From the NCBI GenBank assembly GCA_964016885.1, contig OZ024744.1:96038001-96102000 (forward strand): a stretch of DNA of 64,000 nucleotides, in the 5' to 3' direction. This stretch comes from Eledone cirrhosa. Its lineage: Eukaryota. Below are positions 29,441-30,715 of the stretch, piece by piece. The notes under the pieces were generated by a model that saw only the letters and a program-made list of their open reading frames with translations, was not told the DNA's origin and did not search any database. Numbering within the stretch: position 1 is the stretch's first letter; each line of letters opens with the position of its first letter. The position numbers and the translations under genes were made by a program.

Positions 29441-30336
29441 TATGGTGAACTAACTGTTGTGTAACCACTTCTCTCTCCCTCTTCTCTCTCTCTCTCTCTC
29501 TCTCTCTCTCTCTCTCTCTCTCTCTCTCCTCTCTCTCTCTCTCTCTCTCTCTCTCTCTCTCTCTCTCTCTCTCTATATATATATATATATATATATATAT
29601 ATATATATATATATATATATATTATATATATATATATATATATATATATATATATATATATGTAAAAATAAGAAGGTAATTTGGCAACCGAGTTTGGCAC
29701 GATTCTCCGATAGTCTGAATAGGTCCCTTATGGATTTACACATTTCACAATGCTTCAAGCAAACTTTAACACCCTCATATATATATATATATATATATAT
29801 GTAAGTATATATATATATATATATATATAGTATTAAGGGTACTATTTATGGTTATGTATGTAATAAAACCTTTAATGGTAATATATTATATATACAAACC
29901 TTAAATAGTGAAAGATAGTCATTAATTACTATCCTATTACCAGTAAGATAAATAGCTCAATGTAATAACAACAGTTGTTTTACAGAGCAGTTATATATAT
30001 ATATATATATATATACATATATATATATATATATATATATATATATATATATATATTTATGTGTATATATATATATATATATATATATATATATATATAT
30101 ATATATATATATATATATATATATATATATATATATATATATATATATATATATATATATATATATATATATATCACCAGAGGGCGCTAGCCCCCCCGGT
30201 GTTTACATAGCTACGGCTTCCTAAAACCGTATTTCTTTGGAGATACGAAATATTTATACATATTGTATAAAGCTATGCTTGATGCGAAATCTTATTTCTT
30301 TTCTATTATGAGTTGAGCCAACTTATGCAGCTTCAT

Positions 30337-30344
30337 ATGCAAAT
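30337..30344 (+). promoter_or_regulatory. Octamer motif ATGCAAAT in the retrozyme-like monomer
   Basis: Perfect octamer, also intact in the second copy (26026-26033). Function is inferred only. Confidence 0.35.
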
Positions 30345-30432
30345 GAGATTAATCACCTCATTTACACAGACGAGAAAACTATATATTCTCGCCTGTCTTC
30401 TAGTCCAGCAGTCGCAGAGCAGTGGGAGGGAT

Positions 30433-30472
30433 CGTCCTGACGAAGGCCAGTTAAGCCTGAAATGCATAGACG
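30433..30472 (+). ncRNA. Canonical minimal type I hammerhead ribozyme
   Basis: CGTC-CTGACGA-AGGC-CAGTTAA-GCCT-GAAA-TGCA-TA-GACG. Confidence 0.92.
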
Positions 30473-30715
30473 GCTGTCCACCTTGCTCCTGTTGGACATC
30501 ACCAGAGGGCGTCAGCCCCCCGGTGTTTGCATAGCTACGACTTCCTAAAACCGTTTTTCTTTGGAGATACGAAATATCTCTCTCTCTCTCTCTCTCTCTC
30601 TCTCGCTCTCTCTTTCTCTCTCTCTCTCTGTATCTCTCTCTCTCTCTCTCTCTCTCTCTCTCTCTCTCTCTCTCTCTCTCTCTCTCTCTCTCTCTCTCTA
30701 AATATATATATATTT

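Follow-up and report, generated by a model that had tools for sequence, protein, structure and literature searches.

The window analysed here is a 64,000-nucleotide stretch of the 3.0-Gb Eledone cirrhosa genome (contig OZ024744.1, positions 96,038,001 to 96,102,000 of the forward strand), and coordinates refer to it. It holds a retrozyme unit of 323–325 bp, whose focal copy amounts to 1.24 units at 30175–30577: a unit at 30175–30499 continues into another one, of which 79 bp are present at 92.5% identity. The head-to-tail period of 325 bp described in the initial annotation is thus present. Its claim that the unit is non-coding also holds, as no ORF of 100 aa was found apart from frames that run into the adjoining simple repeats. 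The focal copy stops 10 nt before the short end that is usual in the family. Its features are:

29992..30174, no strand: (TA)n target microsatellite, 5' flank of the focal copy
30175..30577, + strand: focal retrozyme copy, subfamily A, 5'-truncated, 96% identical to a 29-copy consensus
30264..30302, + strand: 40-nt "tail" segment between two fixed 3' ends, at unit positions 88 and 128
30304..30396, + strand: 93-nt block identical in the A and B consensus, holding the promoter-like words
30336..30347, + strand: octamer-containing word TATGCAAATGAG, found also in the host promoters of U6 (L106) and RNase MRP (L236); it also forms the 5' arm of a hairpin
30353..30357, + strand: TCACC word, positioned where host U1/U2/U5 promoters have TCAG; loop and start of the 3' arm of the hairpin
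30380..30387, + strand: TATA-like box, 43 nt downstream of the octamer A (46–48 in host Pol III genes)
30403..30497, + strand: type I hammerhead with a long interrupted stem I, core 30433–30472, predicted cut after 30468
30410, + strand: predicted transcription start at TATA+30, at the last A of CAGCA, by analogy with host snRNA genes
30577..30699, no strand: (TC)n microsatellite, 3' flank of the focal copy

Three copies had been reported in the window. All three are present, but those at 25950 and 17885 are fragments that lack a hammerhead:

17885..17979, + strand: third copy, a 95-bp fragment (unit 23–115) without hammerhead or octamer
25850..25949, − strand: 3' piece of a PLE pseudo-LTR, fused to the second copy
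25950..26194, − strand: second copy, 245 bp, unit 322 to about 245, octamer intact, without hammerhead
27441..29470, + strand: neighbouring PLE, a 591-aa open frame and a pseudo-LTR with a different hammerhead (29406)

Elsewhere, the window has 135 copies of a 36-bp repeat (48018–52884, 96% identity, open frames on both strands), fragments of LINE-type retroelements with endonuclease and RT-like frames (30716–31402 and 56880–59427), and, at 32438–32847 and 36778–37311, what we take to be tandem copies of a tRNA-like SINE, 199–201 bp in length.

Exact 26- and 25-letter motifs from the two unit ends gave 770 and 850 matches genome-wide (controls, 0). As the second motif was matched exactly in 14 of 36 sampled segments spanning its site, subfamily A is moderately abundant, with roughly 2,000 segments. 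These have a median identity of 94% to the consensus (n = 150). Subfamily B, recovered starting from one diverged copy, has a 339-bp unit compared to 323 bp for A, and the two consensus sequences differ by 33 events. The 162 loci that we fetched contain 266 distinct segments in 145 loci. Copies were dispersed among the matches listed, and the longest tandem run in the 266 segments was 2.6 units; 20 segments span two hammerheads. The earlier picture of an abundant, tandem-like element therefore has to be modified: the element is moderately abundant and forms some multimers, but its copies are short, truncated, often inverted and dispersed, and long satellite arrays were not seen in these segments.

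The minimal hammerhead that had been claimed at 30433–30472, with a palindromic stem III, was found there (core at 30437), using for recognition the core letters that we take to define the motif. In stem I, CGTC (30433–36) pairs with GACG (30469–72); stem II is AGGC/GCCT and stem III is the palindrome ATGCAT. An Rfam scan of the window returned no match at the gathering threshold, and in the unit even E ≤ 5 gave no hammerhead. The predicted fold of the unit strand (z = −5.5 against 100 shuffles) contains the CACC..GGTG hairpin proposed earlier. A second proposed hairpin, TGTCCA/TGGACA, was rejected. It is private to the focal copy (TGTCCA in one segment, TGTCCC in 128), and its bases are taken up by the long outer stem I.

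Between subfamilies A and B, three of the four stem II pairs are altered on both sides (AGGC/GCCT in 109 of 158 parsed A hammerheads, GAAC/GTTC in 9 of 19 from B), one stem I pair changes from C–G to T–A, and the cut triplet is ATA in A (156/158) and ATC in B (16/19). The compensatory stem changes indicate that the hammerhead is under selection. A weak palindromic stem III suggests cleavage as a dimer, according to the available part of PMC4209133, and by analogy the unit's hammerheads are predicted to act as a dimer through ATGCAT. With its single hammerhead, the focal copy could not by itself yield unit-length RNA. Only one of the 266 segments (L193, 2.6 units) has the octamer upstream of two hammerheads, and this locus could release unit RNA from its own putative promoter.

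The ends of copies were counted in a less-biased set of 206 segments, which omits 30 loci chosen for full length and segments cut by an edge. Ends fell near unit position 88 in 78 segments, near 128–131 in 88 and elsewhere in 40, and a microsatellite adjoined 61 of the 78 and 81 of the 88 (142/166 in total). Among 96 head-to-head pairs, 58 had two canonical ends, and 54 of these 58 combined one long with one short end (P = 1.6e-12), leaving the 40-nt tail on one end only. Loose (AT)n ends also occur at 30263 and 30306 in run X1, which consists of contigs of unrecorded kind; runs X1 and X4 are contigs of one study and are uninformative on strand, start and level. PLE insertions are described as having 5' truncation, an inverted arm and a 30–40-bp one-sided tail (available part of bioRxiv 2021.04.23.441226). 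The segments show random 5' truncation, inverted arms, a one-sided tail and TA microsatellite targets. Both the identity of the unit as a retrozyme and its mobilisation by PLEs, as the initial annotation had proposed, are well supported.

Copies do not stop at the ribozyme cut. None of the 73 copies that reach it halts within 8 nt of it (among 89 picked by a 3'-end motif), and 60 of 166 segments are longer than one unit, the longest being 855 nt. The template for reverse transcription is therefore a circle or an uncut multimer, and a linear monomer cut at the hammerhead was rejected. Separately, 8 of 71 5' ends fall at 239–255, whereas nine nearby bins average 2.3 (P = 0.003, uncorrected for the ten bins). 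As a mark of the start site this pile-up is weak, with ends 5–20 nt downstream of position 235, in a G-rich stem.

The neighbouring PLE is near-complete and, with its inverted 5' arm, spans 26564–29470 overall. Its 591-aa frame has no Pfam match, and its Atlas look-alikes at 0.95–0.98 include RVT_1 (40%) and GIY-YIG (26–31%) clusters. BLAST showed no similarity between this PLE and the unit, the unit has no sequence likeness to the two pLTRs compared, and the PLE, with its different hammerhead, is not the source of the unit. As a mobilising partner it is not established: the two 3' ends of its family are 65 nt apart, compared to 40 nt in the retrozyme and the usual 30–40. The second copy joins its PLE piece at 25949/50 with no spacer, within 2 nt of the PLE's predicted hammerhead cut. 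A template switch is the simplest explanation for this join, although a later deletion could mimic one. A further PLE junction, at L039, is ambiguous as a template switch, its PLE part (87%) having diverged further than the repeat (98%).

The insertion pattern is exactly that of PLE stumps, and retrozymes are related to pLTRs in the available part of bioRxiv 2026.07.22.740005. It could therefore be argued that the unit belongs to an unseen coding PLE as its terminal repeat, and that the copies are truncated stumps of that element, particularly as our search covered one PLE protein. With this protein as query, matches were obtained at 3 of 162 loci (the window, L129 and L159), none continuous with the unit; at these loci no copy is the pLTR of such a coding PLE, whereas the initial annotation had named constant attachment to one as an outcome that would refute it. 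No PLE-like frame of 150 aa is joined to the unit in L001–L090. Moreover, long copies continue into the unit itself, for up to 2.6 turns, and their 5' flanks are unrelated. We consider it highly improbable that the copies are PLE stumps.

The octamer ATGCAAAT lies at 30337–44, 89 nt before stem I (about 90 nt upstream of the hammerhead had been claimed), and it is intact in the second copy, at 26026. For comparison we fetched host U1, U2, U5, U6, U6atac and RNase MRP genes (L091–L125, L236, L237, L273–L284). All five U6, MRP and U6atac promoters (three distinct U6, MRP and one U6atac) have a TATGCAAAT(G/T)AG-type word at −77 to −79, which reads TATG(C/G)(A/T)AAT(G/T)AG in untranscribed DNA, and a TATA box at −30. 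The word is missing from that place in 13 of 13 other dispersed copies (8 U6, 5 U6atac). Its core is found in 5/5 Pol III genes and 0/12 Pol II genes, and TCAG or TCAC at −55 to −58 in 11/12 U1/U2/U5 genes and 0/5 Pol III genes.

In outline, both host promoter classes have an A/T box near −30, with TCAG at about −57 in the Pol II class and the octamer word at about −78 in the Pol III class. Ten host U1, U2 and U6 promoters also have a TTA(C/T)(C/T)TCCCTT-like word at −257 to −288, and the pseudo-LTR of the window PLE contains a 17.7-bit match to this distal word at 29287–29297, about 120 nt before its hammerhead. A distal CCCTT-like match in the unit (12.3 bits, position −260, 7/500 shuffles) is absent from families X and Z and lies in stem I; there are 12 equal matches in 125,700 background positions, and we kept it as a hint.

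The word in the unit scores 21.0 bits, compared to 10.9–18.1 bits for host genes left out in turn, and this score was reached by 0 of 500 shuffles and at no site in 62,850 background bases. Together with the invariant A/B block and the four other hammerhead families that keep the octamer (see below), this match shows that it is more than chance. The comparison with host U1, U2 and U6 upstream regions, which the initial annotation had suggested, gave the core word of the Pol III genes together with the TCAG spacing of the Pol II genes. TCAG or TCAC is present in families A, C, X and Y but not in Z, 17 nt after the word and 26–27 nt before the TATA-like box, and TATA+30 reads CAG, starting at the A, in four of five representatives. 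The TATA-like box itself scores 4.9 bits compared to 11–14 bits, and lies 3–5 nt closer to the word than in host Pol III genes; at the spacings of 44–50 nt its score is −3 or lower. The U1/U2 profile score of the unit is only 1.4 bits. The cassette appears to be a hybrid that matches no host gene class as a whole: the core word of a U6-type (type 3 Pol III) promoter is there but its TATA spacing of 46–48 nt is not. An octamer with proximal snRNA elements inside the unit, as in satellite 2, is found by sequence comparison with the host genes. Thus the proposal of an snRNA-type octamer/PSE promoter stands in so far as the word is that of U6-type promoters, but the octamer word is proximal, at about −77 in host U6-type genes and about −73 in the unit, and not a distal enhancer.

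The cassette might instead be a U6-type Pol III promoter, whose transcripts mostly terminate at T runs so that only read-through RNA is cut and circularised. The core word, found in Pol III genes alone, and the presence of a TATA-like box are consistent with this, and at the site of the unit's 6 T or T4C the long ends of A copies mostly show ≤4 T. This end position recurs in subfamily B, which has no T run there, and the long 3' end was therefore rejected as a Pol III terminator. T4–T6 runs would hinder Pol III, and the units hold such runs before the next hammerhead. The spacing of 43 nt, and the TCAC and CA start that resemble U1/U2/U5, also argue against Pol III, and we regard this alternative as quite improbable. 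Polymerase choice in insects depends on the 3' half of the proximal element (available part of PMC1761439), which fits a Pol II reading of the cassette. If the cassette is a promoter, Pol II would be fairly clearly favoured over Pol III.

Is the cassette a promoter at all? The 93-nt block that holds it is the longest run of identity between A and B (positions 129–221; 20,000 draws, P = 0.00045), and this identity could come from recombination. Of 150 dispersed A copies, 123 (82%) retain an intact octamer, within the 73–93% range of 11 neighbouring 8-mers, as is expected of dead insertions and with no support for a promoter. The preferential conservation expected of the octamer is therefore seen in the A/B block but not among the dispersed copies. 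In addition, each of the seven representatives has a dyad (7–11 of 12 pairs) in which the octamer word makes up one arm, with a covarying G–C/T–A change at position 10, so RNA structure can explain part of its conservation. These observations, and the hybrid spacing, would suit a promoterless retrozyme that is transcribed by read-through, with the block kept as an RNA hairpin signal, whether recognised by the PLE protein or stabilising the RNA, and the likeness to U6 being ancestral debris or chance. Animal retrozymes do seem to lack promoters in the part of a review available (PMC7761336). On the other hand, host U6 and MRP genes have the same 12-mer at −77, in DNA that is not transcribed, and the TCAG and TATA words keep host-like distances. 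The octamer C is unpaired yet kept in 6/7 representatives, the 3' arm of the dyad varies freely, and in family Y the pairing drops to 7–8 of 12. We think a promoterless element unlikely. The claim that the element transcribes itself gains real but indirect support from the shared promoter word and the invariant block, with the octamer as a proximal element.

The same cassette was found in other hammerhead families. A degenerate form of the word was sought outside family A, in the window together with fetched loci totalling 538,875 bases (~0.6 Mb in all), and gave 12 matches. One was in subfamily B; of the remaining 11, eight lay in families X, Y, Z and C and three in none, these families having been found through the octamer word itself. 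In X, Y and Z the hammerhead follows 89–102 nt after the word. A TATA-like box lies 41–44 nt after it in X, Y, Z and C, and is degenerate in the single C copy. Alignment of these four families to A either is confined to the cassette or fails altogether. One variant of the word has 19,109 matches genome-wide (control, 0), and a hammerhead core lies behind it in 28 of the 30 loci listed first; 28 of the 30 are family X, several of them in one array. A strict hammerhead scanner had missed family X because of a T–T pair at the base of stem II, and a relaxed scanner was used instead. The window holds two such copies:

46700..46860, − strand: decayed family Y copy with the same octamer/TCAG/TATA cassette
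61010..61097, − strand: truncated family X copy with the same cassette

The octamer word is absent within 130 nt of nine other hammerhead-like sites of the window, including two PLE ends. Ten further motifs of this kind, from several families, lie at 4138, 6099, 6680, 7292, 9209, 9510, 12549, 12847, 13190 and 25631, and none of those checked has the word upstream. Families Y and C apparently have a U3–A8 core instead of C3–G8 (L253, L272 and L013; 46700–46780 in the window, − strand), and the stem III of family Y, ACAATTGT, is common to the window PLE. Single microsatellites also hold nested or fused copies of different families, with A combined with C or with Z, or lying beside X (L013:1367–1446, L051, L141). 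Family X, about ten times as abundant as family A, forms arrays of 430–502-bp units with up to six in a row (L254–L260, L265–L271).

Our preferred reading, to which we give a probability of roughly 0.65, is that the unit is a protein-free non-LTR retrozyme, likely pasted by PLEs into TA microsatellites and likely with its own snRNA-type promoter ahead of the ribozyme. We infer the following cycle. A rare locus of at least 1.8 units would be transcribed from the octamer/TCAC/TATA cassette, starting at about position 235 and probably by Pol II, into the next units. Two hammerheads would then pair through ATGCAT, with a predicted cut behind unit position 292, and the resulting 323-nt RNA would probably be circularised. 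As the genomic footprint shows, reverse transcription, presumably by PLE enzymes acting in trans, starts at unit 88 or 128 on (TA)n, crosses the cut without a stop, often exceeds one full unit, ends at random and leaves an inverted second arm. Because the cDNA can exceed one unit, it would rebuild the upstream promoter before the ribozyme, which ordinary U6 retrocopies cannot do. An extension of this reading, which we hold at even odds, is that this animal's retrozymes as a class are self-promoted, with at least five families sharing a hybrid snRNA promoter in tens of thousands of copies, and that circularisation combined with reverse transcription of more than one turn lets an upstream promoter travel through RNA.

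What does the element add? It gives a promoter model at base level (octamer word, TCAC, TATA and start site) checked against host snRNA genes, and the model would explain the need for the ribozyme circle. The copies of the element supply countable genomic evidence that PLE enzymes move retrozymes, which so far has been argued from co-occurrence and trees. If the extended reading is true, then, with newt satellite 2, capture of an snRNA promoter would be a recurrent or ancient strategy of retrozymes. It would also overturn the read-through transcription that a 2020 review assumes for animal retrozymes, in its available part, because no promoters were seen (PMC7761336). A by-product is a map of the words in host U6 and U1/U2 promoters, which can serve tools for small-RNA expression. 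Our literature searches turned up no publication that describes this element or reports an snRNA-type promoter for invertebrate retrozymes; relevant information may be present in subscription papers, Repbase entries, the PMC7229834 supplement and Coats 1994.

Non-LTR retrozymes are a known class. The metazoan members have the same non-coding, self-paired unit of 170–400 nt with one type I hammerhead, partial tandems and co-occurrence with PLEs as found here (available parts of PMC7229834 and bioRxiv 2026.07.22.740005), and our unit likewise has no LTR or ORF, one type I hammerhead and some loci with two. In contrast to them, copies here are mostly below 1.5 units and dispersed, the PLE inversion and tail are documented copy by copy, and a promoter-like cassette is present. 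Plant LTR retrozymes do have a promoter, according to abstracts. Endonuclease-bearing PLE insertions share the (TA)n targets, 5' truncation, partial tandems, inverted arm, one-sided tail and a hammerhead with palindromic stem III (available parts of PMC4209133 and bioRxiv 10.1101/2021.04.23.441226), but the unit here has a frame for neither a reverse transcriptase nor an endonuclease and closes on itself, and the pLTRs in the window lack the octamer word. Compared to the host snRNA promoters, with the core word of the Pol III genes and the TCAG–TATA distance and CA start of the Pol II genes, the cassette combines features that the host keeps apart, is carried by a mobile unit and also forms an RNA hairpin. 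A precedent is newt satellite 2, which is similar in size (~330 bp) and has a hammerhead with a weak palindromic stem III and an internal snRNA-type promoter, for Pol II (Coats et al. 1994, as cited in the available part of PMC2220036). Satellite 2 is tandem and its promoter is tested, whereas in the octopus unit the octamer is proximal, at about −73.
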